Shown: positions 6,520-52,189, numbered from the stretch's first letter. The stretch is DNA of 64,000 nt from Candidatus Saccharimonadia bacterium (GCA_046597065.1 JBKJLI010000002.1:116071-180070); one strand, 5' to 3'. Notes: a model not told the origin generated them from the sequence alone. A program made the numbers and translations.

Positions 6520-6560
6520 TTGGGGTAGCACCCCTCCGTTCCCTCTGCGATCCCGCAGTT

Positions 6561-6785
6561 TTAGCTCTTGCCTCTTTTCCTTCGAGGAATGAAGATGTAT
6601 GCGAGAACGATGATGAAGATGAAGACACCAAAGGTGTCAACGAACTTCACGGTGGCGACCATCGCCAGCTGGAGGAGGAAGTATCCTCCGATCAACATGA
6701 CAGCCAGTGCCACGATTGCGTGCAGCCAGCTCTGGACCGCCCAGTCGAACGCCTGTCGAATGATCGAGGGGTTGTTGTTCGGCAT
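6561..6785 (-). CDS. Small membrane protein (74 aa) in a high-GC islet; 2 predicted TM helices, basic C-terminus (PRRKRGKS)
   Basis: The ORF has a strong G/C third-codon-position bias (CCG AAC AAC AAC CCC TCG ATC...) unlike flanking genes. The product is hydrophobic. An AAAGGT SD sits 6 nt upstream. Confidence 0.5.
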   Translation of the reverse strand: MPNNNPSIIRQAFDWAVQSWLHAIVALAVMLIGGYFLLQLAMVATVKFVDTFGVFIFIIVLAYIFIPRRKRGKS

Positions 6786-6980
6786 ATCGTACCTTTCTGA
6801 GATCGGTCAATGGTGGCTGCGATAAGCGGCCACATGGAGGGGCTGAAGTTTGAGGTGCTACATTGCCAGATTGTGCTGAAAGCGTAAATTTGACAATAGG
6901 CAATAGTACTACAAATACTACAAGAAGTCAATAGCACTTATGGTTCACGGCACTTGTTAATGCTTGTATAATTAAATGTT

Positions 6981-8972
6981 ATGACTCAGTTCAAACTCTC
7001 GAGTAAATATCTGCCAGCCGGTGATCAGCCCTCTGCTATCGCTCAGCTTAATGACGGCCTAAAACGCGGCGATAAAGAGCAGACATTGCTAGGTGTAACT
7101 GGGTCCGGTAAAACCTTTACCATGGCCAATATTATCCAACAGCAGCAACGGCCGACATTGATCTTAAGCCATAATAAGACCTTAGCTGCACAGCTTTATG
7201 GCGAGTTTAAGCAGTTTTTCCCAGATAATGCTGTTCAATACTTTGTTAGTTATTACGATTACTATCAACCAGAGGCTTATATACCCCGAAGCGACACATT
7301 TATCGAAAAAGATAGCGCCATTAATGAAGAAATCGATAGGCTGCGTCATGCAGCTACGATGAGCCTGTTGAGTCGCAAAGATGTAATAATTGTGGCTTCG
7401 GTAAGCTGTATTTACGGCCTAGGTAACCCAGGCGACTACATGAGTATGACGGTCGACGTAAAGGTGGGCGAGACGCGCAAACGCGACAAGCTGCTGCGCC
7501 TGCTCACCGATATTCAGTACAGCCGCAATGACATGAACTTTACGCGCGGGACTTTTAGGGTTCGTGGAGATACGGTTGAGATTTTTCCGGCCGGCGACGA
7601 GACTGCTTTTCGGGTGGAGTTTTATGGCGACGAGGTTGAACGCATTCGCCAGGTGGACCCATTAACGGGGGAGGTTATTGCCGACCGTAAGGACTTAAAA
7701 GTTTTTCCAGCCAAGCACTTTGTGACACCCAATGAAAAGTTAATGAAAGCAATTGGTGGGGTAAATACCGAGCTAGCCACGCGAGTGGCGGAACTAAAAG
7801 TTCAGAATAAACTAATCGAAGCCCAGCGCCTAGAGCAGCGCACCAAATTTGATATGGAGATGCTAGAACAGACCGGATTTGTTGGCGGCATTGAAAACTA
7901 CTCGCGTTATCTAGGCAGCCGTGAGCCGGGTGAACAGCCGGCAACACTGATCGACTACTTTCCAGATGATTTTTTGCTTTTTGTTGATGAAAGCCATATC
8001 ACTATTCCTCAGGTACGGGGGATGTTTAATGGTGATCGTGCTCGCAAAGAAACGCTCGTCAATTATGGCTTTCGATTGCCAAGTGCTTTAGACAACCGTC
8101 CACTTCGTTTTGATGAGTTTGAGCGCCACATCAATCAAGCTATTTACGTTTCGGCGACCCCGGCGCCGTGGGAGCTTGAGCGTTCAGTGCAGGTGGCGCG
8201 GCAAATAATTCGACCCACTGGGTTGCTAGATCCAGAAATTGAAGTAAGGCCGGTTGAGCATCAGATTGATGATTTGATAAAAGAGATTCGTTCAACAGTA
8301 GCCAAAAAACAGCGGGTGCTGGTGACTACCCTAACCAAGAGGATGGCCGAGGATCTAACAACCTATTTACAAGAGAGCGGCATAAAGGTGCAGTACCTGC
8401 ATTCAGAGATAAATACTCTGGACAGAGTTGATATTCTGCATGATTTACGTAGCGGTGTGTTTGACGTTGTGGTTGGTATTAATCTGCTACGCGAGGGCCT
8501 AGATTTGCCGGAAGTCAGCCTGGTGGCAATTATCGATGCCGACAAAGAGGGTTTTTTGCGCAGTGAGTCGGCCTTAATGCAAACCATTGGTCGCGCCGCC
8601 CGCCATGTTGAAGGAAGAGTGATTATGTACGCCGACAACATTACACGTTCTATGAAGGCGGCTATCGACACTACAATTGAGAGGCGGAAAATTCAGGGTG
8701 CATATAATGAACAGCATGGAGTTACCGCAACCGGTATTAAAAAGGCGTTAGCCGAGCGCATGCAGGCCGAAGAGGCTGCCGAGACCGCCGATATAAAGCC
8801 GCTAAATATTAAGGACATACCCAAAGATGAACGCAAACACTTGCTAGACGAACTAGGGATGCAAATGCAGATGGCGGCCGAAAACCTACAGTTTGAAAAA
8901 GCCGGGGCATTACGTGACCAAATTGAGGAAATTAAGGCAGCTACCGCGGCCACTAAAAGGCCCAAAATCTAA
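6981..8972 (+). CDS. uvrB: Excinuclease ABC subunit B
   Basis: 663 aa. Walker [11 protein letters not shown], helicase motifs, and a C-terminal UVR domain ([17 protein letters not shown]). Confidence 0.95.
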
Positions 8973-9037
8973 GATCTGGATTGACAGCATAAGCGGTTTG
9001 CCAGATAATTTAGGCAATATACACAAGGAAAAATCCA

Positions 9038-9751
9038 GTGCATCCCGAACTTAATAAATATATTGCTGATAAGCGTACCCATGGGCTGAGCGATGAAGCC
9101 ATAAAAGATAATTTAGTTGCGGGTGGCTGGAATGAAACCACCGTTAGCGCGGCTTTACGGGGTGATGCCAGCGAGGTTCCGGCACCTCCTCCGCCCCCAG
9201 CAGGTCCTGTAGTTAGCCCCATAGCAGCAGGTGGGCAGCCAGCACCGGTAGCCGTGGTACAAAACTTCACCACTACCGGGCTGGAATACATTATTATGTT
9301 TATTAGTTTGTGGGTAACCGCTACCTCGATCGGTTTTCTGGCGCATGAAATGGTGAATAACGCGCTGGCCAACGATACCAGTAACACCTACAGTTTTGCT
9401 GGATTTGATCAGATGTCGGTAGCCGCTCTAATTGTTTCCCTGCCAATATTTACGATACTATTCCTGAGGTTAAAAAAGCGCGAAAACAACGATGCCTCAA
9501 TAAAAAATGATCCATCTCGCAAAAAAGCGGTGCAATTAACTTTAATTGTAACTTTTCTAACTGGCTTGCTTAACGTCATCGGTTATATTTATGGCCTTCT
9601 AACCCCTGCCACAAGTGGTACTAGCGATTATATCGGGATTGGGGCATCTACACAGGGCGGCATCATCAATCTTGCTCATACGCTCATTACTTTGCTGATT
9701 GCCGGCGGTATTTTCGCTTATTATTGGCACGATGAACACAAAAAAGACTAA
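9038..9751 (+). CDS. Hypothetical membrane protein with N-terminal soluble domain and Pro-rich linker (PAPPPPPAGPVVSP)
   Basis: 237 aa with a GTG start and an AAGGA SD. About 4 predicted TM helices follow a proline/alanine-rich low-complexity linker. Confidence 0.5.
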   Translation: MHPELNKYIADKRTHGLSDEAIKDNLVAGGWNETTVSAALRGDASEVPAPPPPPAGPVVSPIAAGGQPAPVAVVQNFTTTGLEYIIMFISLWVTATSIGFLAHEMVNNALANDTSNTYSFAGFDQMSVAALIVSLPIFTILFLRLKKRENNDASIKNDPSRKKAVQLTLIVTFLTGLLNVIGYIYGLLTPATSGTSDYIGIGASTQGGIINLAHTLITLLIAGGIFAYYWHDEHKKD

Positions 9752-10292: not shown

Positions 10293-10321
10293 TTGACAAG
10301 CGGATATTAAAATGATATAAC
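10293..10321 (+). promoter_or_regulatory. Near-consensus sigma70-type promoter (TTGACA-17 nt-TATAAC)
   Basis: TTGACA at 10293-10298, an exact 17-nt spacer, and TATAAC at 10316-10321, about 50 nt upstream of the ATG at 10370. Confidence 0.45.
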
Positions 10322-10369
10322 ATTTATTAGTCTTCAGTTGTCCAAATCGACCTCTTTGAAAGGACGAGC

Positions 10370-10624
10370 ATGAAGAAGCACTGTAGTACGCGAAGGTCGG
10401 TTTCTCAAATTCCGACGGCCAATTACAGGTTGATGGATCTGATCATCTGCATTTCGATGATGAAACTTCTCTTCATCCTGGTGCTCGCAGCCTTGCTATC
10501 CAGTGGCTGGGAACGAGTTATCGCAGTGGCTTGCTTTGCAGGTTTGATTGCTTCGGCATGGCTGATTCGTCGGTGGACAGTCAATGGGTTGCGTGGCAAC
10601 TCCAAGCCCTATAGAAAGGACTAG
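10370..10624 (+). CDS. Small membrane protein (84 aa) in high-GC islet
   Basis: An AAAGGACGAGC SD sits 1 nt upstream of the ATG. The product is hydrophobic (2 TM helices). The codons are GC-rich at the third position. Confidence 0.45.
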   Translation: MKKHCSTRRSVSQIPTANYRLMDLIICISMMKLLFILVLAALLSSGWERVIAVACFAGLIASAWLIRRWTVNGLRGNSKPYRKD

Positions 10625-10626
10625 AG

Positions 10627-10854
10627 ATGAATCAGTATGCCTGGTTGATCATCGGCCTGACGTTCGCGGTGCTGGCACTTCATTCGAGGCGAAAGGCAAT
10701 CAGCTACTGGCTGCTGCCCCGAATCAAGCTGTGCTTTCAGCTGATCAACCCAATCCGAGTGCAGCCCAAGCCCACCCAACGGCATCGGCAGGTCAAGGAG
10801 CCTTCACATTCCCGCCGCCGCCATCGTGGCAAGCGCGGTAAGGCCCCGTCGTAA
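10627..10854 (+). CDS. Small membrane protein (75 aa) with strongly basic C-terminal tail (RRRHRGKRGKAPS)
   Basis: It starts 2 nt after the previous stop with its own AAAGGA SD. It has one TM helix and an Arg/Lys/His-rich tail. A terminator follows. Confidence 0.45.
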   Translation: MNQYAWLIIGLTFAVLALHSRRKAISYWLLPRIKLCFQLINPIRVQPKPTQRHRQVKEPSHSRRRHRGKRGKAPS

Positions 10855-10875
10855 TGACGGGGCCTGTAGTTTTTA
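10842..10875 (+). terminator. Intrinsic terminator (GGCCCCGTCGTAATGACGGGGCC + T-run)
   Basis: A perfect 9-bp stem overlaps the stop codon of the 75-aa ORF and is followed by TGTAGTTTTT. Confidence 0.55.
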
Positions 10876-13832: not shown

Positions 13833-13858
13833 TTTAGGCAAAAAGAGAGCCCACCGAA

Positions 13859-13884
13859 GTGGGCCCTCGGTGGGCGTTGGATCA
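13859..13884. terminator. Bidirectional hairpin between convergent uvrA and the high-GC ORF
   Basis: Overlapping stems GCCCAC-CGAA-GTGGGC and CCCACCGA...TCGGTGGG. There is an A-run on the + side and a T-run for the minus-strand transcript. Confidence 0.5.
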
Positions 13885-14487
13885 GGTGACCGTGACGGCA
13901 GGCTGAGCCTCAAGGTACTCCAGCAGGCGGTTGGTCCTGTGTGCCAGAATTCCGGCGTAACGCACAGCCTGTCCGCGCTGGGTTAGCACGAAGTTCATGG
14001 CGTCGGCCACCTGGATCGCAGAAGTGGCTTCTGTTCTGATAGCTGCAAGCAGCCACTCTACAACGTCCACCAGCCGGTCACCTTCAAGCGGATTTGCTTC
14101 GGCGTACATGTCGTGATCACGACTGAGCCGACCGACGCGGTCCGGAAGCGTTACCGGAAAGCGTTGGAAGAGGTCGGTGACGTCACTGAAGTATTCCTCC
14201 AGTTGAATTCGGGTAGGCCTGTGATTCATCACGATCCACCTTGCAGCCAAGAACCCGAACTCCGAACAGGTGGAATCGTTCATGAGTGCTGCAACGTCGT
14301 AGGTCATCAGTGGCCGGGCGCCAACTTCATCAATGCCACAGACGTATCCAGGCACGCCACCTTCGTAAACGAAGTATTGATTGTCCAGAGCCATGGAGCC
14401 AAGCATCGTAATGCTCAACCACTCCCTTGAGCCTGGGATTGGGTCTGGAGTGTCCCGTAGAGGTGTATCAAGCGTTGGGGAGCCCAT
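13882..14487 (-). CDS. Hypothetical protein (201 aa), high-GC foreign-looking gene between uvrA and uvrC
   Basis: A perfect AGGAGG SD sits 6 nt upstream of the ATG. The reading frame has a strong GC3 bias and the product is a non-repetitive soluble protein. No family motif is recognised. Confidence 0.55.
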   Translation of the reverse strand: MGSPTLDTPLRDTPDPIPGSREWLSITMLGSMALDNQYFVYEGGVPGYVCGIDEVGARPLMTYDVAALMNDSTCSEFGFLAARWIVMNHRPTRIQLEEYFSDVTDLFQRFPVTLPDRVGRLSRDHDMYAEANPLEGDRLVDVVEWLLAAIRTEATSAIQVADAMNFVLTQRGQAVRYAGILAHRTNRLLEYLEAQPAVTVT

Positions 14488-14579
14488 GGCTCGCCTCCTA
14501 TGTTTTGAGGGCCGAATTGAAAGGTACGAGATTGAAACTAATTATACCTTAAACCAGTCGTTAAGTCAATGATTATGGT

Positions 14580-16096: not shown

Positions 16097-16468
16097 ATGG
16101 CCGAACTGATATATGTTGCAGATGATGATACCGGATTAAGGACTGCCTATGCTGCAGCCCTACACAAATTAGGATACGAAGTTGAGACCGCCTCTGACGG
16201 CTTAGAAGCTCTAAATTTGGTTAAAAAGCGTAAGCCAAATGTAATTTTACTGGACATGCTGATGCCAAATCTAGATGGCATTGGATTTTTAAAGGCCCTT
16301 AGAGCCGATAAAGCCAACGACGACGTTATTGTAATTGTGGTAAGTAATTTCGAGTCTATGCCAGAGGCCAATGATTACAATGTAGTTAAATATTTGTCGA
16401 AGTTACAGCATGATCCAGAAGCAGTGGCATCGAGAGTTGCCGACATCATTGGAGGCAACCATGCGTAG
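16097..16468 (+). CDS. Stand-alone response regulator receiver domain (CheY-like)
   Basis: 123 aa. The DDD acidic pocket (YVADDDTGL) and the phospho-acceptor context ILLDMLMPNLDG, plus KALRA...VIVIVVSN, match a receiver domain. There is no output domain and no kinase nearby. Confidence 0.75.
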   Translation: MAELIYVADDDTGLRTAYAAALHKLGYEVETASDGLEALNLVKKRKPNVILLDMLMPNLDGIGFLKALRADKANDDVIVIVVSNFESMPEANDYNVVKYLSKLQHDPEAVASRVADIIGGNHA

Positions 16469-16841
16469 TAGTTTGATAGGCAGCTTTTTGCTGCGTTGGT
16501 TTATTAACTTTTTGGGGCTGTGGGCCGCCGCCGCACTGTTGACTGGTGTTGATTATGGAAATCGGCTGGCAGTGTTGGTATGGGCCGCCCTTATCTTTTC
16601 GTTAGTAAATGCGGCCATACGGCCACTTGTCGTGGTATTAGCGCTACCAGCCATCATTCTGTCGTTGGGGCTGTTTATACTTGTGGTCAACGCCCTGATG
16701 CTTTACTTGGTAACAGTGTTGTATCCCGATTTTAGTGTTAGCTCGTTTGGGCAGGCCATTCTGGCTGTGGTGATTATTTGGATAGTCAACTATGTAATGA
16801 GTGCGCTGATAGATGGGAGACGCCATGAAAACACTGTTTAA
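16461..16841 (+). CDS. YvlD/DUF360 (Phage_holin_4_2 superfamily) membrane protein
   Basis: The WFINFLGLWAAAALLTGV...LVNAAIRPLVVVLALPAIILSLGLFILVVNALMLYLV pattern matches the 4-TM YvlD-like family. The start is taken at the ATG at 16461, preceded by a GGAGG SD; the ORF track's upstream start at 16410 is less likely. Confidence 0.6.
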   Translation: MRSSLIGSFLLRWFINFLGLWAAAALLTGVDYGNRLAVLVWAALIFSLVNAAIRPLVVVLALPAIILSLGLFILVVNALMLYLVTVLYPDFSVSSFGQAILAVVIIWIVNYVMSALIDGRRHENTV

Positions 16842-21449: not shown

Positions 21450-21785
21450 ATGTTATTTTTTAAAGCCAGGCCACGTGCTCGTTTTGCATCTTGGTCATTT
21501 TTAGCTCTGTTAGTACTGTTTGCCTCTATTTCAACTCAACGGCTAGCGGTTGGTTTAACCGGAATCGGAGCTGTACTTATCATTAGCTCAATTTTGGTAG
21601 AAGCCAACAAAGAACGAATTTGGGACGATTACAAAAAGCAGTATAAGTACTCAAAAAATGATTTGCTGCCTAAGTCTTGGTCTGAGCCAAATCAGTTGTA
21701 TTATCGATTGAACATTTACCTGGTGTGGCCAACTGTCTTTTTACTAGGCCTAGCGGCAATCTACGCGGCTTACTTGATCGCATAA
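21450..21785 (+). CDS. Hypothetical small membrane protein (111 aa)
   Basis: Two or three predicted TM helices and native-like base composition. Confidence 0.45.
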   Translation: MLFFKARPRARFASWSFLALLVLFASISTQRLAVGLTGIGAVLIISSILVEANKERIWDDYKKQYKYSKNDLLPKSWSEPNQLYYRLNIYLVWPTVFLLGLAAIYAAYLIA

Positions 21786-21813
21786 AATTTGCTAAACTAA
21801 CCTGGATCATCGC

Positions 21814-21900
21814 GCGGACGTGGTGGAATGGTAGACACGCCAGCTTGAGGGGCTGGTGGCCGCTTAGGCCGTGGAGGTTCAAGTCCTCTCGTCCGCACCA
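21814..21900 (+). tRNA. tRNA-Leu (anticodon GAG)
   Basis: GCGGACG/CGTCCGC acceptor, anticodon stem CCAGC/GCTGG with loop TTGAGGG, long variable arm, T-arm GGAGGTTCAAGTCCTCT, and CCA. Confidence 0.85.
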
Positions 21901-21940
21901 AAACAACACAAGCGGCCTTCTCTGGTCGTTTTGTTGTTTT
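21900..21940 (+). terminator. Hairpin immediately after tRNA-Leu(GAG)
   Basis: AAAACAACA...TGTTGTTTT, a 9-bp stem with a loop of about 23 nt ending in a T-rich arm. Confidence 0.35.
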
Positions 21941-22035
21941 GTAGCCGCAGGACTTGAACCGATAGGTGAGAATTGCCAGTGGCAGTTCGCAAGACCGGAA
22001 GCCCGGCGGACGAATGTCGCCGAGCTGGGTGGGGT

Positions 22036-22088
22036 CGAGGCACGCCTGCTTGCAGGGTGACCGTGACCAAGTCCTCTCTCGCGCACCA
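22036..22088 (+). other. Degenerate direct copy of the 3' half of tRNA-Leu (pseudo-tRNA fragment, att-like)
   Basis: ...GGCACGCCTGCTTGCAGGGTG...CCAAGTCCTCTCTCGCGCACCA aligns with ACACGCCAGCTTGAGGGGCTGG...TCAAGTCCTCTCGTCCGCACCA of the intact tRNA 140 nt upstream. No 5' acceptor partner is present. Confidence 0.4.
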
Positions 22089-22137
22089 AAACGGACTTTA
22101 AGGTATTGCAAATATCTAGATTTCTGCTGAGTCTCGT

Positions 22138-23358
22138 CTAGCCTCTGGCCCAGAAGACTAGCCTGTCGCCAACGCCAACATTATCAAGCCCAGCGTATAA
22201 GTGGGCTGCGTTCCTCTGTCGCTGCACTCTCACGCCGTTGGAAACAATCCCAGCCTCGTTAAAGCCCCAGGTGTTGGTTAACATTTCTGCCAAGCTATCT
22301 GCAGTGTGAAAAGTATGATGGTCACTATTCGTGTCAAAAATTGGTCGGCGTAACTGATGCGAAGAACCACTTCCCGTTATTAAAGGTATAAACTCCGCTA
22401 ACTGAACAGAATTCGGGACACTACCAATCAACATTGCACCCGTTTGCTTCAACCATGGTAAGATTGATTTTTTAAACACAACAGCATGGTGATCAATGTG
22501 CTCGAGTATCTCGCCAAATACCACAACATCAGCTTCTGGGGCATGCTGCCCGAAGTACTCAGCTCGCTTTGTCATTACGTCTACGGCAACTCCTTTATCC
22601 AGATATCTTCCGTGCAGCCCGTAAAGTATAAGGTCTTTTGATACATCAAATCCTGTTATTGTGGTTGCCGCTCTTTCGCTTGGATTTAATTGCGCGATAA
22701 TATTGCGTTCAAGCGGAAGTGGTCCAGTCCCAAAATTGACTAGTGATGCACGTCCTTTGTTTGCCAACGCCTTACGTATGCCTATGAGCCCGAGATCTGT
22801 GAGCATTTCGATGCGTCTGATATGCAAGCCTTCACCTTTTAGGTAGCAATAGTACTGGTCTAAAACGCCAGGCTGTGTAAAATCCTGAGCCTCTACATGT
22901 AAAACAGCTGAGGGGTCGATTTCTATATTGGCAGTGGGCACAGTCTTCCTAGCTTGTACGATTGCCGCTGCTATTACTGGGAATGGTTCAAGCATTTCTT
23001 GACTTGTAAGCGGGTTCGAGGACCATTTTTTTAATAGGTCTTGGTCTGGGACGCGCCCAATAGGGTCTGCAAGATGAATGCCGGCAGCTCTAATCCGATC
23101 ATCTGAAATCGGAATGCCGGATAAGTGGCCATTTGCTAAAGCTCCTAGATATAATCTTTGTTCATACGTCGGGTCTTCTAAGTCGATTCTGTAAAGTGCG
23201 CCTGACTCCCTTAGATTATATAGTTGGCTAGGTGAGAATAGTGGGCTGCATTCGAAACCTACCAAAAAGGTGTCTTGTGGGGTTTGATTATCGAGTACTT
23301 GAGCTTCCAACGACGGCATAATGTTGCATATATTGACACAAAAACAACAAAATATCAA
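22138..23358 (-). CDS. Hypothetical protein with C-terminal class I SAM-dependent methyltransferase-like domain
   Basis: 406 aa (the start may be Met14). Motif I-like VNFGTGPL, an acidic D after beta2 (TGFDVS), and motif II DVVVFGEILEHIDHH. The N-terminal ~200 aa has no recognisable family. Confidence 0.5.
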   Translation of the reverse strand: MIFCCFCVNICNIMPSLEAQVLDNQTPQDTFLVGFECSPLFSPSQLYNLRESGALYRIDLEDPTYEQRLYLGALANGHLSGIPISDDRIRAAGIHLADPIGRVPDQDLLKKWSSNPLTSQEMLEPFPVIAAAIVQARKTVPTANIEIDPSAVLHVEAQDFTQPGVLDQYYCYLKGEGLHIRRIEMLTDLGLIGIRKALANKGRASLVNFGTGPLPLERNIIAQLNPSERAATTITGFDVSKDLILYGLHGRYLDKGVAVDVMTKRAEYFGQHAPEADVVVFGEILEHIDHHAVVFKKSILPWLKQTGAMLIGSVPNSVQLAEFIPLITGSGSSHQLRRPIFDTNSDHHTFHTADSLAEMLTNTWGFNEAGIVSNGVRVQRQRNAAHLYAGLDNVGVGDRLVFWARG

Positions 23359-23861
23359 ATCACTCGATTTACTTTACCCTGTTTCACCAGTATCATTAGA
23401 ATTAGTCCCAAACGCCTTCATAAACTGGTCCAACCAGCTTAAAAGGTGTGCGAAAGAAAGTGCCTCAAGGGCACCAGCAATTATCGACAAACCAATTAAT
23501 TTTAATTGCAGTGGATTAATCCCCACAACTCATAATATTTTACATTTATTGACAGGTTGGTTATAGATAGTGCATAGTGACCACAACTTTTGTGGTAGCT
23601 GTGTGTGCTCGAAACTAGTTCTAGCACAAGCACCAACGACAAAGGATCGACGATGGTATGCATTCGACTGTGCTTCGCTTGCCAGAATGGTAACCACCAT
23701 CGGCACGCCGAAGTGATTCAGGGCGTACCCGAGGGCATGTTGGGTGGCGCTAGGTGTGATTGCACTGGTGCTTGTGATCCGAGTGGAAACTTTCGGGAAC
23801 TGCAGGGTCACATCTCTACGGCTCACCGTCGGAGAGATCAACGCGTCCAAACTCGGGGGAG

Positions 23862-24431
23862 GTGAGTATGAGGACGGCTCAGGCCGCTGCGATGGTCCAG
23901 TGGGGCCCAATCGGCCGTTACATCCAGCCAATATCACTGTCGCTAACGGTGATGATGGTGGGTTTTTTCATGTTCTGTGGGTTGTTTTCGGCGAACTCTG
24001 CTAAGGCGGTGTTGCCGGCTGTGGTCACAGAAGAGAGGGGTCCAAGGCAGCTCATTTCATCGCCTGGCGGAGGCGACCCAGAGAGGTTGTATTGTTCCAA
24101 GCCAGGTAAAAGCAAGTGGCAACTTCGCAGTTTCATTGTTCACTATCTGAGCCAGAAGGGGCTCGAAGGCGGCGTCGACATTTCGACCATTTGCTGGGCC
24201 TACATCGATATATTTGGCTTCAGGTCGGAAGCCGACTTTCTGGTTCAGGCCGATACCCTGGCTTTGGCCGGTTACATCAGAAAAGAAGGCGCCGCCGCCG
24301 ATTGCTATTACGTCATCCAGAAGATGGGTCTTGAAGAGCTGAAGCGAGATGATCAGTATCTGGTCAGCCAGATGAGTCGATGGTTGTCAGATATGCCCAA
24401 CTTTGTCGGCAAGGAAACCACTGGTGGTTGA
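23862..24431 (+). CDS. Hypothetical protein in high-GC cassette (start codon uncertain)
   Basis: The longest frame runs through a markedly GC-rich ~0.85 kb block. The C-terminal ~120 aa is non-repetitive (…CWAYIDIFGFRSEADFLVQADTLALAGYIRKEG…). A hairpin follows the stop. Other frames give low-complexity ORFs. Confidence 0.4.
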   Translation: MSMRTAQAAAMVQWGPIGRYIQPISLSLTVMMVGFFMFCGLFSANSAKAVLPAVVTEERGPRQLISSPGGGDPERLYCSKPGKSKWQLRSFIVHYLSQKGLEGGVDISTICWAYIDIFGFRSEADFLVQADTLALAGYIRKEGAAADCYYVIQKMGLEELKRDDQYLVSQMSRWLSDMPNFVGKETTGG

Positions 24432-24447
24432 AACCACCAAAAACATC

Positions 24448-24479
24448 TGAGGCCCTAGTTCAAGCAAGAACTGGGGCCT
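24448..24479 (+). terminator. Hairpin GAGGCCC-N-GGGGCCTC after the high-GC cassette
   Basis: gaggccctagttcaagcaagaactggggcctc, 15 nt after the stop. Confidence 0.4.
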
Positions 24480-24690
24480 CAAAACGGATTAATCAGCTTT
24501 TTATAATTCATGGTGCAGCAGCTATCAAAAAATTTCCACCAGATAAGGGATGAGATAGCCCGTTGGAGGTCAATACTGGAAATTCCCTATCAAGAATACC
24601 TACACGCACAATCCCACTAAGGGAGACTAGGGAGTTACACGGCTGAGACCTAAATCACAAAAGGGCTAGAAATTTTGGTATCCTATTTAC

Positions 24691-25263
24691 ATGAAAGATG
24701 TAGTCGCCATTATTGCTATCATTCTCACGTTTGTCGGCTATTTACCCTACATAAGAGATACCATCAAGGGTAAGACTAAACCCCATGTCTATACTTGGTT
24801 TGTGTGGGGGCTTGTCACACTGATTGCCTTTGCTCTTCAAGTAAGCGCAAAAGCAGGCGTAGGTTCGCTAGTAACTCTCGCCGCGGGATTGGTTTGCTTA
24901 GCGATATTTGTTCTTGGCTTGCGTCAGGGCAAAAGAGACATACCCTTTATTGATAAAGTTTGCTTATCCTTAGCCCTCGTTGCACTCGTAGCATGGTTGT
25001 TTGCGAAACAGCCTGTTCTTTCAATTATTATTGTAGCGTTAGCTGATATGCTTGGGTTTATTCCGACAATTCGTAAGTCATGGCATGCGCCACACCAAGA
25101 AACGCTGTCATCTTATGAAATGAATACTTTTCGTTTCGCACTGGCTATTTATGCCCTGCAACACTACACGATAGTTACTATTCTCTACCCATTAACTTGG
25201 ATAGTCGCAAATGGGTTGTTTAGCATTTACCTCATTATTCGCCGTAAACAGGTACTTACTTAG
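24691..25263 (+). CDS. Hypothetical integral membrane protein (190 aa, ~6 TM)
   Basis: Evenly spaced hydrophobic helices. A ThiT/ECF-S-like size was considered, but there is no supporting motif. Confidence 0.5.
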   Translation: MKDVVAIIAIILTFVGYLPYIRDTIKGKTKPHVYTWFVWGLVTLIAFALQVSAKAGVGSLVTLAAGLVCLAIFVLGLRQGKRDIPFIDKVCLSLALVALVAWLFAKQPVLSIIIVALADMLGFIPTIRKSWHAPHQETLSSYEMNTFRFALAIYALQHYTIVTILYPLTWIVANGLFSIYLIIRRKQVLT

Positions 25264-25741
25264 TTTTGTGTCGCACAATGATGATTGTACGGCCAACGCT
25301 AACAGATATGGCGGCCATTTTTTAGCGACAGGGTGGCTTGTCAAGGGTTAGGGTAAAACGGCTCCGTATCTGTTAAAAACATTATTATGACATGTCGCAC
25401 TTTTGCGATGATTACTCGCCAAGTCCGTGACTATTGAGGCACAAAGTATAGTTCCTTTTGTAAAGCTCGAATAGCCTGTTATCGGCTGGCGATCCGGAAC
25501 CTTCAACCTGTTTAACCGCATACTTATTGCACCCTTGGCGATCCCAATAGGGTCGCCATCCAAAAAAGAATAGTAAGTAGATTGATATTATGGTAAGCAA
25601 TACGGTTTTACCGCGTATCTGAGGCATTTTGAGCCGCATAAGATCCTTTCCAAGGTATTTATTGGTAAAAGGGACGGCAAACTAAAAAAGCTCGCCACAA
25701 GCGGCAACCTTTCGGCTACCCATCACCGTTTCCAGTAATGA

Positions 25742-25782
25742 CCACGAAAAGAAGTACTCATGACGAGCTGTTTCTTTTCGTG
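25742..25782. repeat. Perfect 12-bp inverted repeat CCACGAAAAGAA-N17-TTCTTTTCGTGG
   Basis: It was read directly from the sequence. It lies in the 1.3 kb ORF-less stretch upstream of the serine recombinase. Confidence 0.5.
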
Positions 25783-26538
25783 GATTTGATGACCATGCCC
25801 CTAACTAATTAGTGGTTTAGGCCTAGTGGTTGCCCACATAAAAGTAGTATACCGCAGGGACACCCTACCCGCACCCGAAATTGTCAGGCGGCTTGCAGGT
25901 ACTTATTATTAGCCTGTCCTCCGCCGTATTTATAAGACAGACATATTAACGGTTAATTGTGGCTACAATTTTTGTGGGAAATTTTTTGGTTAAAAGTGAC
26001 CACCTCTAGTGGAGTCGTTTTGCTCACTATATTAGCCCCATTCTAAGAGGGATGTTAGCCCTGCTCCGTGTGTCTGTCTTCGTTTTTATGATCGTTTTTT
26101 TTGCCATCACAAAAGAGATGGCATGGCGAAAATAGTCGTTTACTCTGCCTATTTTTGTGTATAGACTAAGCCCTATAAGTATAGGTACTTTCAGAGCCAA
26201 GCCCCGACATCTCACCACGATAAGACGTGAGAGAAATGAGATGAAATGGCAGGCGGTGCGGTACCAGATACTCCGGCGAAAGCAACGGACTCCAAAGTCA
26301 ACAGGGTTCAAATTCGTGTTTCCGCCGCCTCTAAGCGTAAGGAAGACGCACTAGCACTAGCATATCTTGTCTACGATATTTTCATAGAAGAAGGCCGCGG
26401 TGATAAAGTAGAAAATGGACAAAACAATGCAAATCAAACTAAACATACCTAATTTATCGATAGTAGTGGGGACTTCTGTTGGCTTCGATTTGCAAGCCTT
26501 GTCCCAGAGGTCTCCACTAGTATCCGTAAGGTGTAGTT

Positions 26539-28098: not shown

Positions 28099-28151
28099 CC
28101 CTGGACCTCTTCCTTGGCAAGGAAGCGCTCTAACAGCTGAGCTACACCCGC
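28076..28151 (-). tRNA. tRNA-Gly (anticodon GCC), T-loop non-canonical (TTAGAGT)
   Basis: GCGGGTG/TACCCGC acceptor, D-arm GCTC/GAGC, anticodon stem CTTCC/GGAAG with loop TTGCCAA, T-stem CAGGG/CCCTG, and CCA. Position 56 is A rather than the near-universal C. Confidence 0.75.
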
Positions 28152-28154
28152 ATA

Positions 28155-28230
28155 TGGTGGCGAGACTCGGACTCGAACCGAGGACACGAGGCTCTTCAAG
28201 CCACTGCTCTACCAACTGAGCTATCTCGCC
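28155..28230 (-). tRNA. tRNA-Phe (anticodon GAA)
   Basis: GGCGAGA/TCTCGCC acceptor, anticodon loop TTGAAGA, variable GTGTC, T-arm CTCGGTTCGAGTCCGAG, and CCA. It is very similar to canonical bacterial tRNA-Phe. It lies 3 nt from tRNA-Gly. Confidence 0.85.
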
Positions 28231-28305
28231 GCGTTCGGTCGCAACTCAAAAATCATACCTGGATTTAAGAGTTTTTTCAACGGTTCTGTTGATGTGTTTT
28301 GGGGG

Positions 28306-29838: not shown

Positions 29839-29923
29839 GTGCCACCTTTCGTAGAGGCAGAAGTAGGCGTATATTACTACAACATTAAAAAATAGTAAAT
29901 ACTAGTTTTCGAGATGAGAATAA

Positions 29924-30115: not shown

Positions 30116-30189
30116 GGCACTGTGGCGGAGTGGTTACGCAGCGGTCTGCAAAACCGCGTACGCCGGTTCAATTCCGGTCGGTGCCTCCA
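30116..30189 (+). tRNA. tRNA-Cys (anticodon GCA)
   Basis: GGCACTG/CGGTGCC acceptor, 3-bp D-stem, anticodon stem GCGGT/ACCGC with loop CTGCAAA, T-arm GCCGGTTCAATTCCGGT, and CCA. Confidence 0.85.
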
Positions 30190-30276
30190 GGGAGAGTGGT
30201 GGAATCGGTATACACGACGGACTTAAAATCCGTTGCCCATACGGGCTTGAGGGTTCAAGTCCCTCCTCTCCCACCA
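30190..30276 (+). tRNA. tRNA-Leu (anticodon TAA)
   Basis: It starts on the nucleotide after the CCA of tRNA-Cys. GGGAGAG/CTCTCCC acceptor, anticodon stem ACGGA/TCCGT with loop CTTAAAA, long variable arm, T-arm GAGGGTTCAAGTCCCTC, and CCA. Confidence 0.85.
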
Positions 30277-30391
30277 GCAATTATTATTATTGGCTTTACA
30301 ACCTAAATTCAAAGTGCTTGTGCTTTATACTTTAACGCGGTATAAATGCATAAGAAAAGAAAAAATACTAATTTTACTGATAACGCTATCT

Positions 30392-32218
30392 ATGTCAACG
30401 AAACCAAAAACTCAATCTAACATTTCCTCTGCGTTATCTAGCAATGGACTTCTTCGACACGGACAAAATTTATCAAAACGTAAGCTGATAGTAATAGCTC
30501 TCATATTAGGGTTGGTAGGCATTTATGTGGTTTACCGGTCGTTAGCGTCGGGTGCCGTCGGCAGTGTTGAGGGGGAGTCCTTAAGCGGCAGCGGAACAGT
30601 TATATCGTCTACCACTGCAAGTAACGGAAAGTATCTACAGATCAATAGCGCGACGGTTACTGCCGGCACAATTACCACCACGGCACCAGCTACAACCTTG
30701 AGCGTAGCAGCCAGTGGTATACAGTGCCATGGTGCGCCGCAGGTAAGCATTAAGATTGATGGCAGTCAGGCTTTGGTCGCTAGCGTCTCAAACTCTAGTG
30801 GTTGGGTTAATTACACCGCAAATATTCCAATTTCTCAGGGTACTCATGCAATCAGCGCGGAATTAAAAAATCCATTGACCAGAGGTAAATGCAGTCGTGC
30901 ACTTAATCTTGATGTTGTCAGAGCATTAGACAATAGTTCGACCGACACCACGCCTCCGGGCGTTTCGATCGCCAACCCTTCTAACGGATCTACGGTTTCT
31001 GGAACGGTAAACATTGCAGCTTCGGCTTCAGATAATGTGGGTGTCACAAAAGTAGAATTCTACGTGAATAATTCGTTGTCGAACATGGTATCAGCATCGC
31101 CATACAACCTAAGCTGGGATACAACATTAGTAGCTAATGGAGCCTACAGTTTGGTGGCTAAAGCGTATGATGCTGCTGGCAATGTGACACCTTCTGCTGC
31201 AGTTAACGTGACTGTAGCAAACAATGCCTCAACTTTAGGCGCTTCGCTTCCGCCACCACTCCCAGAATCTAGTGGCAGCAAGGTTAGCGGATCGACTACG
31301 ACCGCGCTGTCCACCTTGGTGAGTGGGCTCAGTGCTGGAACAACACTTTGTTTACACGGCGGCGTTTATGGCCAAGGGCAAACATCGTCAGTAACATTAT
31401 CAGCGTCCGGAACTGCCTCAAACCCAATTACAATTGAATCGTGTACTGGGGAGACGGCTCAAATCGCGCAGCTAATTAAAGTAACTGGGAATTATATCAG
31501 GTTACGGAATTTGAAAATCATTCGAAATAACTACCCAACCGATAGCCGCTACGGACAGAGCGGCACGAGCCCAGGAGGTAATGTCGGCATATGGCTGACT
31601 GGACAGCATGTGACTCTTGAGCACTCTGAAATCACGGGTGCGACAATGTCGGGGATATTTGGAGGCGGGGCATATGATCAGATAATTTCTAACTATGTAC
31701 ACAACAACGGCACAACTCCCGATGATCATGGCATCTACTACACTAGCAATAACTCATTAATAGCCAATAACCTGTTTGTCGCGAACTATGACTTCGGCAT
31801 ACAGCTCGGATATACCAGTACGTATGGCAATGTGGTGGCTAATAATACTACAGTCCAGAATGGTTTTGGTAATCCATCTTACCCTGGATCTGGCACGGTT
31901 ACCTTTTCGGGGACAAGTTCAAACTTGTTTGTAAACAATATTTCGGCTGGTAACGCCCAGTATGGATTCAAGACATACGATACAACCAACACACTATCTC
32001 ATAATGATGCATTTAATAACCCTGCCGGTGTGAGCAGTGGTAACTATGCTTCAATCGCCGCGATGCTTAGCACTAACCCGCTATTTGTATCGACTAGTGA
32101 CTTTCATTTGCAATCTGGGAGCCCGGCCATTGGATACGGTGATCCGGCTTATACTCCTCAAACAGATTACTATGGTAACCAGAGAAGCAGCGCCGACCTT
32201 GGCGCCATAGCACACTAG
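30392..32218 (+). CDS. Cell-surface protein: N-terminal signal-anchor, Ig-like (Big-type) domains, right-handed parallel beta-helix repeats
   Basis: MSTKPKT... then a TM helix, and Ser/Thr-rich repeats with 'VSIANPSNGSTVSGTVNIAASASDNVGVTKVEFYVNN' Ig-like modules. The C-terminal half has NN(G/L)...N..(F/Y) beta-helix (PbH1-like) repeats. The upstream 30290 start runs into the tRNA and is rejected. Confidence 0.6.
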   Translation: MSTKPKTQSNISSALSSNGLLRHGQNLSKRKLIVIALILGLVGIYVVYRSLASGAVGSVEGESLSGSGTVISSTTASNGKYLQINSATVTAGTITTTAPATTLSVAASGIQCHGAPQVSIKIDGSQALVASVSNSSGWVNYTANIPISQGTHAISAELKNPLTRGKCSRALNLDVVRALDNSSTDTTPPGVSIANPSNGSTVSGTVNIAASASDNVGVTKVEFYVNNSLSNMVSASPYNLSWDTTLVANGAYSLVAKAYDAAGNVTPSAAVNVTVANNASTLGASLPPPLPESSGSKVSGSTTTALSTLVSGLSAGTTLCLHGGVYGQGQTSSVTLSASGTASNPITIESCTGETAQIAQLIKVTGNYIRLRNLKIIRNNYPTDSRYGQSGTSPGGNVGIWLTGQHVTLEHSEITGATMSGIFGGGAYDQIISNYVHNNGTTPDDHGIYYTSNNSLIANNLFVANYDFGIQLGYTSTYGNVVANNTTVQNGFGNPSYPGSGTVTFSGTSSNLFVNNISAGNAQYGFKTYDTTNTLSHNDAFNNPAGVSSGNYASIAAMLSTNPLFVSTSDFHLQSGSPAIGYGDPAYTPQTDYYGNQRSSADLGAIAH

Positions 32219-32317
32219 TAATAAGTTGTTAGTTTGGATTGTGAGTGATCATAATTTTGCTGCCAACAGTGCTTAAAAGTGGTAAAATAGGGTTAGATTA
32301 TTTATGAGGCAGCAACC

Positions 32318-39187: not shown

Positions 39188-40605
39188 GTGTTAATTTAAG
39201 ACGTCCGATAGCTGATTTGGTGGCAGAGGTTCAGGCCGGTAAACTGACAGCGGTCGAGCTGGTAGAAGCTAGCTTAGCGGCGATTAAATCTGATGATCAC
39301 CATGCCGTGCTAGAGGTTAACCCAGAAGCATTAGGTCAGGCTAAAAAGATTGATGCCGGGAATAAAAAAGGACGGCTTGCTGGGATCCCGTTTGTAGCCA
39401 AGAACAATTTCTTGACCAACCATACTCACACAACCGCTAGCAGTAATATATTGGAGCCGTTTAGAGCACCATATCAATCAACGGCAATCGAAAAGCTGGA
39501 GGCCGAAGGAGCAATTATGGTTGGTAAAGCCAACATGGACGCTTTTGCCCATGGCTCATCAACCGAAAACAGTGATTTTGGACCAACTAAAAATCCAGTT
39601 GATAGTAGTTTTTCTCCCGGCGGTTCTTCGGGTGGTTCCGCTGCTGCCGTTCGCCTAGGTCTGGCTTGTTTTGCGCTTGGTACCGATACGGGGGGCTCGA
39701 TTAGACAGCCAGCGGCCTTCAGTGGCGTAGTTGGCCTAAAACCTACCTACGGGCTAGTGTCGCGCTACGGGGTGGTAGCCATGGGCAGCTCGGTGGATGT
39801 GATTGGCCCCCTCGCTAATCGAGTGGGTGATGTAGCCTTAGTACTGGATGTAATGGCCGGTCGAGATTCTAAGGATGCCACTACTATTGAGCGCGAAAAG
39901 GAATCGTATGTTGATCTAGATAGTGGGTTGAGGGGCAAAAAAATCGGCGTTGTTAAGGAATACCTTGGCGAGGGCATCAGCGGTGAGGTGAAAGACTCGG
40001 TGATTCAGGCCATTGAGCAGATGAAGCAGGCCGGGGCCGAGGTAGAGGAGATTAGTTTGCCGGCGGTAACGCTGGCGCTGGCCAGTTACTACATTTTAGT
40101 ACCGGCCGAGATTAGCTCTAACCTGGCGCGTTATGATGGTATTCGCTTTGGCCACAGTGCCACAAATGCCAAGACGCTGGCAGAGACCTATTTGATGAGC
40201 CGCGATCAGGGCTTTGGAGCTGAGGCTAAGCGTCGGATTATGGTCGGGACTTATGTGCTGTCGAGCGGCTACTATGATGCCTACTACAAAAAGGCCCAGC
40301 AAGTCAGAACGCTGATCATCCAGCAGTTTAACGTAGCCTTTAAAAAGTTTAACTTGTTGCTGGGCCCAACCACACCGACCACGGCTTTTAAGCTGGGTGA
40401 AAAAAATCTGGATCCGTTGGCAATGTATTTGGCTGATGTTAATACCGTTGCGCTCAACTTAGTGGGCGCTTGCGGTATCAGCATACCGATAGCAGAGGCT
40501 GGGGGCCTACCGGTTGGGCTGCAACTTATGGCTGCTCAGCGTGGCGAGCGCGAATTGTTGGGTGCTGCGGCTGCAGTTGAGGAGTTGGCGGGGAGCGCAA
40601 TATGA
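39184..40605 (+). CDS. gatA: Glutamyl-tRNA(Gln) amidotransferase subunit A
   Basis: 473 aa. Amidase signature GGSSGGSAAAV and the Ser-cisSer-Lys triad context. Confidence 0.95.
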   Translation: MSVNLRRPIADLVAEVQAGKLTAVELVEASLAAIKSDDHHAVLEVNPEALGQAKKIDAGNKKGRLAGIPFVAKNNFLTNHTHTTASSNILEPFRAPYQSTAIEKLEAEGAIMVGKANMDAFAHGSSTENSDFGPTKNPVDSSFSPGGSSGGSAAAVRLGLACFALGTDTGGSIRQPAAFSGVVGLKPTYGLVSRYGVVAMGSSVDVIGPLANRVGDVALVLDVMAGRDSKDATTIEREKESYVDLDSGLRGKKIGVVKEYLGEGISGEVKDSVIQAIEQMKQAGAEVEEISLPAVTLALASYYILVPAEISSNLARYDGIRFGHSATNAKTLAETYLMSRDQGFGAEAKRRIMVGTYVLSSGYYDAYYKKAQQVRTLIIQQFNVAFKKFNLLLGPTTPTTAFKLGEKNLDPLAMYLADVNTVALNLVGACGISIPIAEAGGLPVGLQLMAAQRGERELLGAAAAVEELAGSAI

Positions 40606-41033
40606 TTTGGTACTTGGTGATAATTTTAGCGGCAGGGTTGTTGATACTTGCGGTGATGATGCGGCCACAATCCAGCACCAAGAGGAAGCATGGAAGCAAT
40701 CGTACGGGCGTGATGGACCGCGAGTTTGTGGCTCGAAAGTGGGCGGACATAGAGTTGATGGTTGCGGGTCGTGGCGGAAGTTTGCGCGACGCCGTTAGCG
40801 AAGCCGACAAACTGCTGGATTACGCCTTAAAGCACTCGGGAGTTTCGGGTGCAACCATGGGCGAGCGCCTAAAAAACTCGCGGGGTCGCTTTAGTAATCT
40901 CGATGAGATTTGGAACGCCCACAAATTGCGCAATGCCCTAGCCCACGAGGCTGATTTTGACCTAGTAGCGACACAGGCTAAGCAGGCCGTCGACCAGTTA
41001 AAGCAAGGTCTAAAAGATTTGGGTGCACTATGA
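40602..41033 (+). CDS. Hypothetical membrane-anchored protein inserted between gatA and gatB (HEPN-like R-x4-HE motif)
   Basis: 143 aa. An N-terminal TM helix and a C-terminal helical region with ...WNAHKLRNALAHEADF... It is translationally coupled on both sides (ATGA overlaps). Confidence 0.5.
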   Translation: MIWYLVIILAAGLLILAVMMRPQSSTKRKHGSNRTGVMDREFVARKWADIELMVAGRGGSLRDAVSEADKLLDYALKHSGVSGATMGERLKNSRGRFSNLDEIWNAHKLRNALAHEADFDLVATQAKQAVDQLKQGLKDLGAL

Positions 41034-51445: not shown

Positions 51446-51566
51446 TTATCACTTGACAAACATAAGCATTTATAGTACTATGGCGCACATGTCCTAGGCC
51501 TGGTGCTTTGGGCAAGTTGTTCGAAAACCTGGCCTACCCAAACCCCCGTTCCTGAGGAGGAACTAC

Positions 51567-52010
51567 ATGCGCAAGTATAGCTTCACCGAGTACATCAACT
51601 CGATCCTGTTCTGGGTCGTCCTTGCTGGAGTGTCCGCCTATTTTGGGGCCTCCCAGGATGCCACACTCTACGTGCTGACGGTGATTTTCGCCTTCGGTGC
51701 GGCCAAGAGCATGGTCGGTGCCATCAGGATGCGTCCGCACTACGATGACAAGGTGAACCAGATGCACGCCAAGAGAGCAATTCTGTTGGGGGTCGCATTC
51801 TTCGGCAGTTCTCTCTGGGCTCTGCAGTACTACGAAAGCGACTCGTTCGTCTACAGCTTCTTGCAGGGATCCGCGATCTTCGGAATCGTTGTCGTCGCCA
51901 TTGCGATGACCGTTATCGACATGACAGAGCAGCGGGGACAAGATCGCATCGATTACGACGACGCTGCCGGAGAGCCGGTACACGTCATGTACGTTCCGCG
52001 TCGCCGGTAG
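51567..52010 (+). CDS. Hypothetical 4-TM membrane protein (147 aa) in high-GC islet
   Basis: A GAGGAGG SD sits 6 nt upstream. There is a strong GC3 bias, and hairpin 52037-52067 follows. Confidence 0.55.
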   Translation: MRKYSFTEYINSILFWVVLAGVSAYFGASQDATLYVLTVIFAFGAAKSMVGAIRMRPHYDDKVNQMHAKRAILLGVAFFGSSLWALQYYESDSFVYSFLQGSAIFGIVVVAIAMTVIDMTEQRGQDRIDYDDAAGEPVHVMYVPRRR

Positions 52011-52036
52011 GCCCCTCGAACACCCGCGTCCCGTTA

Positions 52037-52067
52037 GGGGTGGTGCAGCTTTTAGCTGCACCACCCC
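52037..52067 (+). terminator. Hairpin GGGGTGGTGCAGC-TTTTA-GCTGCACCACCCC
   Basis: A perfect 13-bp stem 27 nt after the stop. There is no downstream T-run. Confidence 0.45.
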
Positions 52068-52189
52068 ACGGGGCGCTTGTCATTACTGCCCCAAATTGCT
52101 ATTATCCACATGAAGAGTCGGCCCCGGTCGGCTGTTTTTATCCCATCTTTTGATGGCACATTTAAATAACATTAGAATAGGAACTTAGT

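Follow-up and report, generated by a model that had tools for sequence, protein, structure and literature searches.

The islets and their genomic setting

We analysed a 64-kb stretch of a genome of Candidatus Saccharimonadia bacterium (GCA_046597065.1, JBKJLI010000002.1:116071-180070; hereafter the window, with positions counted from its first nucleotide), in which six short islets with raised G+C at third codon positions (GC3) lie between conserved genes. The G+C content (GC) of the window is 0.481 across 64 kb, and its tightly packed genes include a housekeeping run (transketolase, aldolase, uvrB, uvrA, uvrC, ligA, gatCAB, dnaE, L19, rnhB, pepF, nusA, clpC, radA, PBP and tyrS) and seven tRNA genes. 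A preliminary description of this DNA had read the islets as repeated, recent and un-ameliorated horizontal acquisitions from a high-GC donor, possibly the actinobacterial host of an epibiont. The flanking genes that it had named (LOG|uvrB, the first here called SLOG, uvrA|uvrC, prs|tRNA-Val and pepF|nusA) were confirmed. Most islets are predicted to be complete units of promoter, Shine-Dalgarno (SD) sequence, open reading frame (ORF) and terminator hairpin. They are listed here with lengths in amino acids (aa), transmembrane (TM) segments, and binomial p values against a GC3 of 0.482.

5898-6461: SLOG gene, convergent with i1, the two sharing a hairpin region at 6535-6560
6561-6785, minus strand: i1, 74 aa, two TM segments and a basic C-terminal tail by ORF and hydropathy analysis, GC3 0.76 (p=8e-7)
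10293-10865, plus strand: islet 2 unit, promoter TTGACA-17-TATAAC at 10293-10321, terminator hairpin at 10841-10865
10370-10624, plus strand: i2a, 84 aa, two TM segments, GC3 0.61 (p=0.011)
10627-10854, plus strand: i2b, 75 aa, basic tail, GC3 0.74 (p=6e-6)
13849-14569, minus strand: islet 3 unit, promoter TTGACT-17-TATAAT at 14569-14541, SD GGAGG, terminator at 13875-13849
13882-14487, minus strand: i3, 201 aa, soluble, GC3 0.62 (p=4e-5)
23653-24481, plus strand: islet 4, with 3' hairpins at 24421-24440 and about 24450-24481
23605/23653-23865, plus strand: possible small Cys/His-rich ORF of islet 4
23868-24431, plus strand: i4, 187 aa (189 aa from a GTG at 23862), N-terminal TM segment, GC3 0.63 (p=2e-5)
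29337-29838, minus strand: islet 5, SD AAAGGTGG, 3' hairpin at 29337-29376
29380-29838, minus strand: i5, 152 aa, GC3 0.70 (p=4e-8), 90 bp from tRNA-Val (29928-30004)
51453-52077, plus strand: islet 6 unit, promoter TTGACA-17-TACTAT at 51453-51481, 22-bp terminator hairpin at about 52025-52077
51567-52010, plus strand: i6, 147 aa, three to four TM segments, GC3 0.76 (p=8e-12)

The organism had been guessed to be of an epibiont type, and this proved correct. The window contains a LOOT RNA (Rfam RF03000; 83.7 bits, gathering threshold 46.4), a motif of the OD1, OP11 and TM7 lineages. The nearest UvrA (GTDB, one genome per species) was 79% identical and labelled Candidatus Saccharimonadia, and the nearest NusA proteins (82-88% by BLASTP) were metagenomic, those with a name being Saccharimonadales or Saccharimonadia. 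Because of the LOOT RNA and these closest relatives, we assign the organism by sequence to the Saccharimonadia, within the candidate phyla radiation (CPR). Saccharibacteria have tiny genomes and are attached to other bacteria; cultivated Saccharimonadia live on Actinomycetota and are naturally competent.

Composition and codon usage of the islets

Sliding-window analysis verified that all six islets are G+C-enriched relative to their flanks. The bulk GC of islets 1-6 was 0.533, 0.514, 0.574, 0.533, 0.566 and 0.576, with 0.42-0.50 in the 1-kb flanks. Of all 400-bp windows in the 64 kb, the four with the highest GC fell in islets 3, 6, 5 and 4 (0.58-0.59), islet 2 ranked eighth (0.568), and islet 1 was weak in bulk GC. 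It was also right that the codons end in G or C in exactly one frame of each islet (GC3 0.61-0.76 against 0.48 in core ORFs, where the standard deviation was 0.04-0.06). No core ORF of at least 150 aa exceeded a GC3 of 0.53 and, apart from out-of-frame or antisense ORFs overlapping islets or tRNAs, no non-islet ORF in the table reached 0.60, the nearest being 40602-41033 at 0.59. Three-base periodicity was strong in one frame (for example, GC1/GC2/GC3 of 0.55/0.39/0.76), with the SD sequence and start codon in that frame. The islets are thus real genes, or ORFs with strong three-base periodicity, of non-host composition.

The ORF at 40602-41033 (plus strand, 143 aa, N-terminal TM segment, no Pfam match) has gatA on one side and gatB on the other, overlaps each by 4 nt, and falls within the fifth-richest GC window (40461-40860). 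The preliminary description had not listed this ORF, which may represent a seventh islet of a milder kind.

Since GC1 and GC2 were ordinary, the compositional shift of the islets is synonymous. The share of C in NNY codons was 0.68 against 0.38 in the host and that of G in NNR codons 0.69 against 0.50, and TTA was nearly absent. L19 and its neighbours showed no such bias (NNY-C 0.25-0.50), so that the islet pattern is not expression-linked codon adaptation; translational optimisation was ruled out on this ground and because of the higher share of G in the NNR codons of the islets.

The dinucleotide signature was then compared by Karlin's delta*. The pooled islets differed from the rest of the window by 152.5, and random host sets of the same sizes by 33.8 ± 10.1 (maximum 66), with none of 500 reaching the islet value. 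In islets and host, respectively, TA was 0.60 and 0.93, GpC 1.04 and 1.32, and GA/TC 1.14 and 0.82. Two controls, host genes recoded to a GC3 of 0.67 and islet proteins back-translated on host codon preferences that were scaled to a GC3 of 0.68, both remained at a delta* of 123-125 from the true islet sequences. For the back-translated set this distance was 125 ± 13, and its distance to host genes was only 66 ± 13. The islet signature is explained neither by amino-acid content nor by a plain GC3 shift. A force that raised GC3 on host-type DNA would be inadequate by this recoding control, and a foreign origin is therefore favoured. Nor does high GC alone create the signature, since relatives retain the host signature even at 56% GC (delta* 52 for L001, 55 for L098 and 63 for L087; L numbers denote the compared loci).

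Among the compared loci, the window islets were nearest to L081/L082 and L096 (delta* 47-66), which are genomes with the i5 family described below. The same loci took ranks 1-5 of 92 by synonymous-codon likelihood, the host ranking 50th and an actinobacterial locus 16th (delta* 109). Proteins of L081 and L096 gave weak or no NCBIfam matches, and these genomes look CPR-like and not actinobacterial. The GC3-rich ORFs of the window's relatives (GC3 0.77-0.86, ATC:ATT 44:1) shared the islet signature, being at 86 from the window islets and 181 from the host; they resembled high-GC bacteria in general, with a distance of 67 to a Pseudonocardiales locus and almost the same closeness to others (68-80, with Mitsuokella at 68 and Anaerolineae at 79). 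GC-rich sister Saccharimonadia of the L001/L090 type were rejected as donors, as they have the host signature and lie at 108-110 from the islets, and the L001 gap genes are host-like.

Expression signals and products

The preliminary description had credited each islet with its own strong SD sequence and one of them with a near-consensus promoter. Strong SD sequences were found for i3 (GGAGG), i6 (GAGGAGG), i5 (AAAGGTGG) and i4 (GGGAGGTG), whereas those of i1, i2a and i2b were weak (AAAGGx only); near-consensus promoters precede islets 2, 3 and 6. As to the claimed bracketing by stable hairpins, GC-rich 3' hairpins follow i2b, i3, i4, i5 and i6 as predicted terminators, and bracketing on both sides holds only loosely. 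In the hydropathy test i1, i2a, i4 (with its N-terminal TM segment) and i6 passed as membrane proteins and i2b was borderline, whereas i3 and i5 were soluble. A single-sequence AlphaFold2 (AF2) model of i3 was uninformative (predicted local distance difference test score, pLDDT, 37). Our guess is that the products are envelope or interaction proteins on which constraint is weak or diversifying.

The i4 gene was called with 187 aa in NCBI and 153 aa in Logan, and i2a and i2b, putative genes identified by periodicity alone, are uncalled in protein collections. A 176-aa antisense ORF runs across i6 (51534-52064, minus strand), and in L100 gene callers chose the antisense frame of a GC3-rich ORF (2905-3237, plus strand, GC1 about 0.77, instead of 2944-3225, minus strand). 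Annotation of GC3-rich islets is error-prone because high GC3 keeps the antisense frame open.

Searches for homologues

The seven islet proteins were concatenated and scanned with HMMER against 1.84 billion cluster representatives. There were only self matches for i3, i4 and i6 and no match, not even self, for i2a and i2b; i1 had one homologue (P0020), to which an i1 profile search added none, and i5 had about 22. A word-index search of 5.8 billion clusters with the concatenated proteins returned no match, self included. Pfam and PHROGs gave nothing below E=0.06 for any islet protein, phmmer found no match among all ORFs of 80 UvrA loci, and tblastn with 14 GC3-rich proteins from the window and its relatives found none in 50,697 phages or 72,556 plasmids. 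Separate look-ups by exact protein sequence gave no entry for UvrA, UvrC, i3 or i6. These searches thus left i2, i3, i4 and i6 without a homologue, and no donor lineage was identified for any islet. Actinomycetota chromosomes, which are heavily sampled, are an unlikely source.

The i5 family has about 23 members of about 150 residues (entries P0004-P0027). It has no Pfam entry, and its AF2 model (pLDDT 91.6), a long N-terminal helix with a small alpha/beta domain, had no fold match in a structure search. Family members occupy different neighbourhoods in four genomes (small genomes, with contigs up to 0.94 Mb), and in two unrelated genomes they lie directly downstream of a GNAT acetyltransferase (L081 5424-6459, L096 5167-6471). 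The 7.4-kb contig that carries one homologue, P0006, also encodes a P4-type primase-helicase and an endolysin; i5 itself had no match in phage collections or IMG/VR. The GC3 of the family is 0.57-0.74 whatever the background (0.34-0.68).

The same slots in relatives

The pepF|nusA slot of islet 6 was compared with that of L098, a relative whose NusA is 84% identical globally (88% by BLASTP), with a GC of 0.496 and a core GC3 of 0.45-0.55. L098 retains the order dnaE-L19-rnhB-UPF0102-pepF-X-nusA-clpC, where X is a 170-aa ORF with four TM segments on the same strand and a GC3 of 0.80. DNA alignment showed conservation of the promoter, of a leader of about 80 nt with two hairpins, of start and stop, of the terminator hairpin and of the nusA promoter (window 51484-51566 and 52008-52090; L098 9199-9284 and 9792-9875). 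The second leader hairpin encloses the SD sequence (UUCCUGAGGAGGAA) and carries one compensatory change between the two genomes, and the 22-bp terminator hairpin carries two. The leader may be a translational control element. Rfam gave no match for leader or terminator, and a tRNA-like identity of the leader was dropped, as a canonical T-loop is absent as well.

Between these flanks, the body of the ORF could not be aligned at the DNA level. The proteins, 25% identical, show a marginal similarity (p=0.009 with full and 0.055 with windowed shuffles) and agree in TM layout and in a loop motif (RMRPHYDD/RTRPRHSD). In a further relative, L100 (NusA 82% identical, core GC3 0.37-0.49), the gap is 1.13 kb long, lacks the leader and holds different ORFs, including a 93-aa hydrophobic one on the opposite strand with a GC3 of 0.82. 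The GC3-rich content of the pepF|nusA gap thus differs in each of the three, the window, L098 and L100.

The only i1 homologue, P0020 of relative L086, is 46% identical (alignment z=20.8 against shuffles) and convergent with a SLOG gene that is 78% identical to that of the window at the amino-acid level; its upstream neighbour is 87% identical, and the arrangement is as in the window. Its GC3 is 0.86, that of its neighbours 0.56-0.61. No patchiness was therefore found for i1, since the orthologue sits in the same synteny.

Patchy distribution was seen for i3 and for the region of i4 and i5. Among the 80 UvrA loci, the uvrA|uvrC gap of other Saccharimonadia ranges from 0.28 kb to 8 kb and never contains i3; in L001, L002, L006, L009 and L016 it has unrelated genes or none. 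L087, with a FAD-oxidase 75% identical to that of the window, has a GC-rich island of its own (1.8 kb, 6600-8400; GC 0.50-0.63 against 0.36-0.47) with two minus-strand ORFs (GC3 0.77 and 0.83) and a likely third one read in antisense (GC1 0.74), none homologous to the window islets. The idea that the islets split genes that are normally adjacent is not supported by this comparison: the same gaps in relatives also hold variable small genes.

Age of the atypical composition

In ten pairs of core orthologues from the window and L098, four-fold degenerate sites were 31-47% identical (31-37% in nine of the ten; Jukes-Cantor distance 0.9-1.85), that is, synonymous sites are saturated. Under a two-state relaxation model, an inherited GC3 excess should decay to about one-third or less in each lineage; the excess observed in the islet 6 slot was +0.28 to +0.30 in both. 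For i1, where the four-fold distance of the neighbouring SLOG gene is 1.09, survival as a passive relic is at the limit of the possible and would require an ancestral GC3 near 1.0. With P0020 at a GC3 of 0.86 in conserved synteny and the L098 slot at 0.80 across saturated four-fold sites, the idea of 'recent, un-ameliorated' transfer breaks down in two slots or more. 'Recent' cannot hold there if the occupants are orthologous, and occupants that are not orthologous imply independent refilling. On both readings the pattern is old and belongs to the clade as a whole.

Mobility context of islets 4 and 5

Islets 4 and 5 lie in a variable segment of about 11 kb that contains five tRNAs, prs, an integrase, the LOOT RNA and a Big_7/CBM60 protein. 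Its features other than the islets are the following.

21814-21900, plus strand: tRNA-Leu(GAG), at the left edge of the segment
about 22019-22097, plus strand: degenerate tRNA-Leu-like copy, about 120 nt past tRNA-Leu(GAG), 3' end kept (CCAAGTCCTCTCTCGCGCACCA)
25703-25823, minus strand: full-length LOOT RNA (Rfam RF03000)
26539-28098, plus strand: serine recombinase/integrase, 519 aa (Pfam Resolvase 1e-11, PHROG 95 integrase 3e-29)
28076-28230, minus strand: tRNA-Gly with adjacent tRNA-Phe

The integrase, the sole recombinase seen in the window, lies 2 kb downstream of islet 4 and overlaps tRNA-Gly (28076-28151) with its 3' end, so that the islet 4 region has an integrase at one end and next to a tRNA gene. 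The degenerate tRNA-Leu copy could be an att-site remnant or a pseudo-tRNA. Because L091 joins its FAD-oxidase directly to LemA and an M48 peptidase (6020-9686) and lacks what corresponds to 21450-32300 of the window, this content is a lineage-specific arrangement; in L087 it is replaced by other content. A chimeric assembly is contradicted at islet 4, for which Logan contig L084 (run SRR31159421) is 100% identical to window 21832-28135 (6.3 kb), both junctions included, and the exact i3, i5 and i6 proteins are on record from both NCBI and Logan assemblies.

The LOOT RNA has islet 4 on one side and the serine integrase on the other; such a location, within a segment that is possibly mobile, may be informative. 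The Big_7 and CBM60 domains belong to a 642-aa protein (30290-32218, plus strand) with GC2 (0.50) above GC1 (0.45), a GC3 of 0.43 and a delta* of 125-147, which is probably a repetitive Ser/Thr-rich surface protein.

Origin of the islets

Our leading explanation, which we hold tentatively, is that the islets are lineage-restricted genes in accessory slots that have been refilled repeatedly, over a long time, from a GC-richer pool. The slots would lie between conserved Saccharimonadia genes and their occupants would mostly be small membrane proteins, each transcribed alone. The source pool would be GC-richer, because the islet DNA lacks the mutational signature of the host lineage, and would probably be borne by mobile elements or consist of other small-genome bacteria. 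The slots would be old and their payload would turn over, the same gap in relatives having either a counterpart that has diverged strongly or another GC3-rich gene; one slot, that of islet 6, would retain the promoter, leader and terminator of the host side. Entry of i4 and i5 is suggested by context, namely the serine integrase and tRNA module near i4, tRNA-Val beside i5 and the phage-like contig of an i5 relative, while i1, i2, i3 and i6 may have come in by homologous recombination across conserved flanks. On this explanation the islet set has several histories and is not a single recent wave from a high-GC host. Of the original proposal, the acquisition from a foreign source finds support in the non-host composition (delta* of 152.5 and the recoding control), and the donor and the recency do not.

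Several observations weigh against slot refilling. The i1 gene and P0020 are true orthologues that look vertically inherited, both with high GC3, and in the islet 6 slot the regulatory flanks are kept to within a few bases of the ORF, so that rapid divergence in place with GC3 maintained fits this slot at least as well as cassette replacement. Neither a donor nor a close homologue was found for any islet apart from the i5 family and the one i1 orthologue, and acquisition is for this reason deduced from composition and distribution. The borders of islets 1, 2, 3 and 6 are free of integrases, tRNAs and repeats, the islets share no repeats or common mobile-element border within the window, and no GC3 gradient, the mark of a recombination tract, was seen at the ends of the flanking genes. 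The gap genes of the GC-rich relative L001 look host-like, and with about 3 kb of sequence the dinucleotide and codon statistics are noisy at the level of the individual islet.

The first alternative is that the islets are old, vertical and very fast-evolving genes whose G/C-ending codons are actively maintained in place, by GC-biased gene conversion at loci prone to recombination or by selection on mRNA, ORFan status being divergence beyond recognition. We consider this unlikely for the set as a whole, but a serious rival for i1 and i6. It would account for the pair i1/P0020 (identical synteny, 46% amino-acid identity against 78-87% in the neighbours, GC3 of 0.76 and 0.86) and for i6 and its L098 counterpart, which have slot, strand, size, TM layout and loop motif in common and flanks conserved up to start and stop. 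Neutral decay over the measured four-fold divergence (Jukes-Cantor 1.4-1.85) should have erased most of an inherited GC3 excess, as argued above, and a lack of homologues is what rapid divergence predicts. The alternative is opposed by the recoding control, in which raised GC3 on host-type sequence failed to give the islet signature (delta* 123-125), by the marginal similarity of the i6 pair, and by the L100 cassettes, which are non-homologous, on the other strand and without the leader. The i5 family is found in unrelated neighbourhoods, the fast-evolving pepF and rnhB (50% amino-acid identity) have ordinary GC3, and no clustering of single-nucleotide polymorphisms was found in GC3-rich ORFs of near-identical strains. 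To our knowledge, an effect of +0.3 GC3 is also far above any reported for GC-biased conversion in bacteria.

A rather improbable second alternative is that of conserved expression slots, each with a fixed promoter, a leader hairpin holding the SD sequence and a long terminator, in which the payload is repeatedly overwritten with small GC3-rich membrane-protein genes of foreign signature by cassette exchange without a recognisable integrase. Such exchange, possibly fed by competence acting on host or neighbour DNA, would give an epibiont fast-changing envelope proteins.

Repeated recent transfer from a high-GC actinobacterial host is, in our view, improbable. The codon bias is of a general high-GC kind, the GC3-rich ORFs of the relatives are nearest to the Pseudonocardiales locus (67, others 68-80), and cultivated Saccharimonadia, which are naturally competent, live on Actinomycetota. 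However, a GC3 of 0.61-0.76 is well under that of an actinobacterial genome with 65-72% GC; i3, i4 and i6 have no homologue among the 1.84 billion representatives despite heavy sampling of Actinomycetota; and there was no match to plasmids or to phages, which included thousands of actinophages. The composition of the islets matches L081/L096, apparently CPR-like genomes, over the actinobacterial locus (delta* 47-66 and ranks 1-5 against 109 and rank 16), and i1 and the islet 6 slot are older than the split from relatives with saturated synonymous sites. An artefact, either a chimeric assembly with high-GC organisms or non-coding GC-rich DNA with chance ORFs, is very improbable: the genome comes from a metagenome, stop codons are rarer at high GC, several islets have open frames on both strands, and i2a and i2b were never called as genes, but an independent Logan assembly is identical over islet 4 and its junctions, every islet has the same genome on both flanks, comparable islets were seen in relatives that came from other samples and had been assembled by JGI, ENA and Logan, periodicity is confined to one frame with in-frame SD and start, and i1 and i5 have conserved protein homologues.

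Comparison with known systems

Compositionally atypical ORFan islets in flexible slots are a known kind of thing. Like the acquired islets and atypical ORFans of Lawrence-Ochman and Daubin-Ochman, those of the window are short, lineage-restricted, unannotated, atypical in composition, codons and signature, and placed between conserved genes, some by tRNA genes and an integrase. Unlike classical acquired islets, most lack mobility genes and repeats at the border, and classical amelioration does not predict that at least two slots are equally atypical in relatives beyond synonymous saturation. Bacterial ORFans are usually AT-richer than their host, whereas the window islets are GC-richer. This, and the recurrence of the pattern in the same slots with conserved regulatory flanks, is what is unusual here.

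The slots at pepF|nusA, at uvrA|uvrC and downstream of the FAD-oxidase resemble replacement-type flexible islands such as surface-polysaccharide loci in having non-homologous content between conserved flanks, but the payload is one or two tiny genes and not a multi-gene cluster, and the relatives compared are at genus level and not strains. With integron cassettes the islets have in common a single small ORF and a long imperfect hairpin at a fixed position; in contrast to them, the islets are scattered and have their own promoters, and the hairpins form no repeat family and have no attC core. The Pfam scan covered part of the window ORFs, the remaining core genes being judged by their housekeeping orthologues in L098, and no IntI-type tyrosine integrase was present in either set. 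Phage morons and integrative remnants are likewise autonomous promoter-ORF-terminator units of odd composition; an i5 relative lies near the P4-type primase-helicase and endolysin, and the integrase is 2 kb from islet 4. However, genes for phage structure or replication are absent from the surroundings of the window islets, and phage collections gave no match. Targets of a diversity-generating retroelement are not supported, as no islet had a direct repeat pair and there was no reverse transcriptase among the scanned ORFs or the L098 orthologues. We found no described equivalent of such islets in the literature on Saccharibacteria.

Accessory genes kept by Saccharibacteria despite tiny genomes are probably relevant to the attached lifestyle, and here accessory small membrane-protein genes can be detected by composition alone and in recurring slots. 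The shortcut by which atypical GC equals recent transfer misdates them. If slot refilling is true, it would be a simple route to surface variation in ultra-small symbionts and the islets would be candidate host-interaction genes; if maintenance in place is true, they would be an unusually strong bacterial case of locally maintained GC3.

Other observations

The gene at 16410-16841 (plus strand), between a response-regulator gene and secG, matches Phage_holin_4_2 (1.9e-25). It is conserved in relatives, and this holin-type gene appears to belong to the core genome and not to a prophage.

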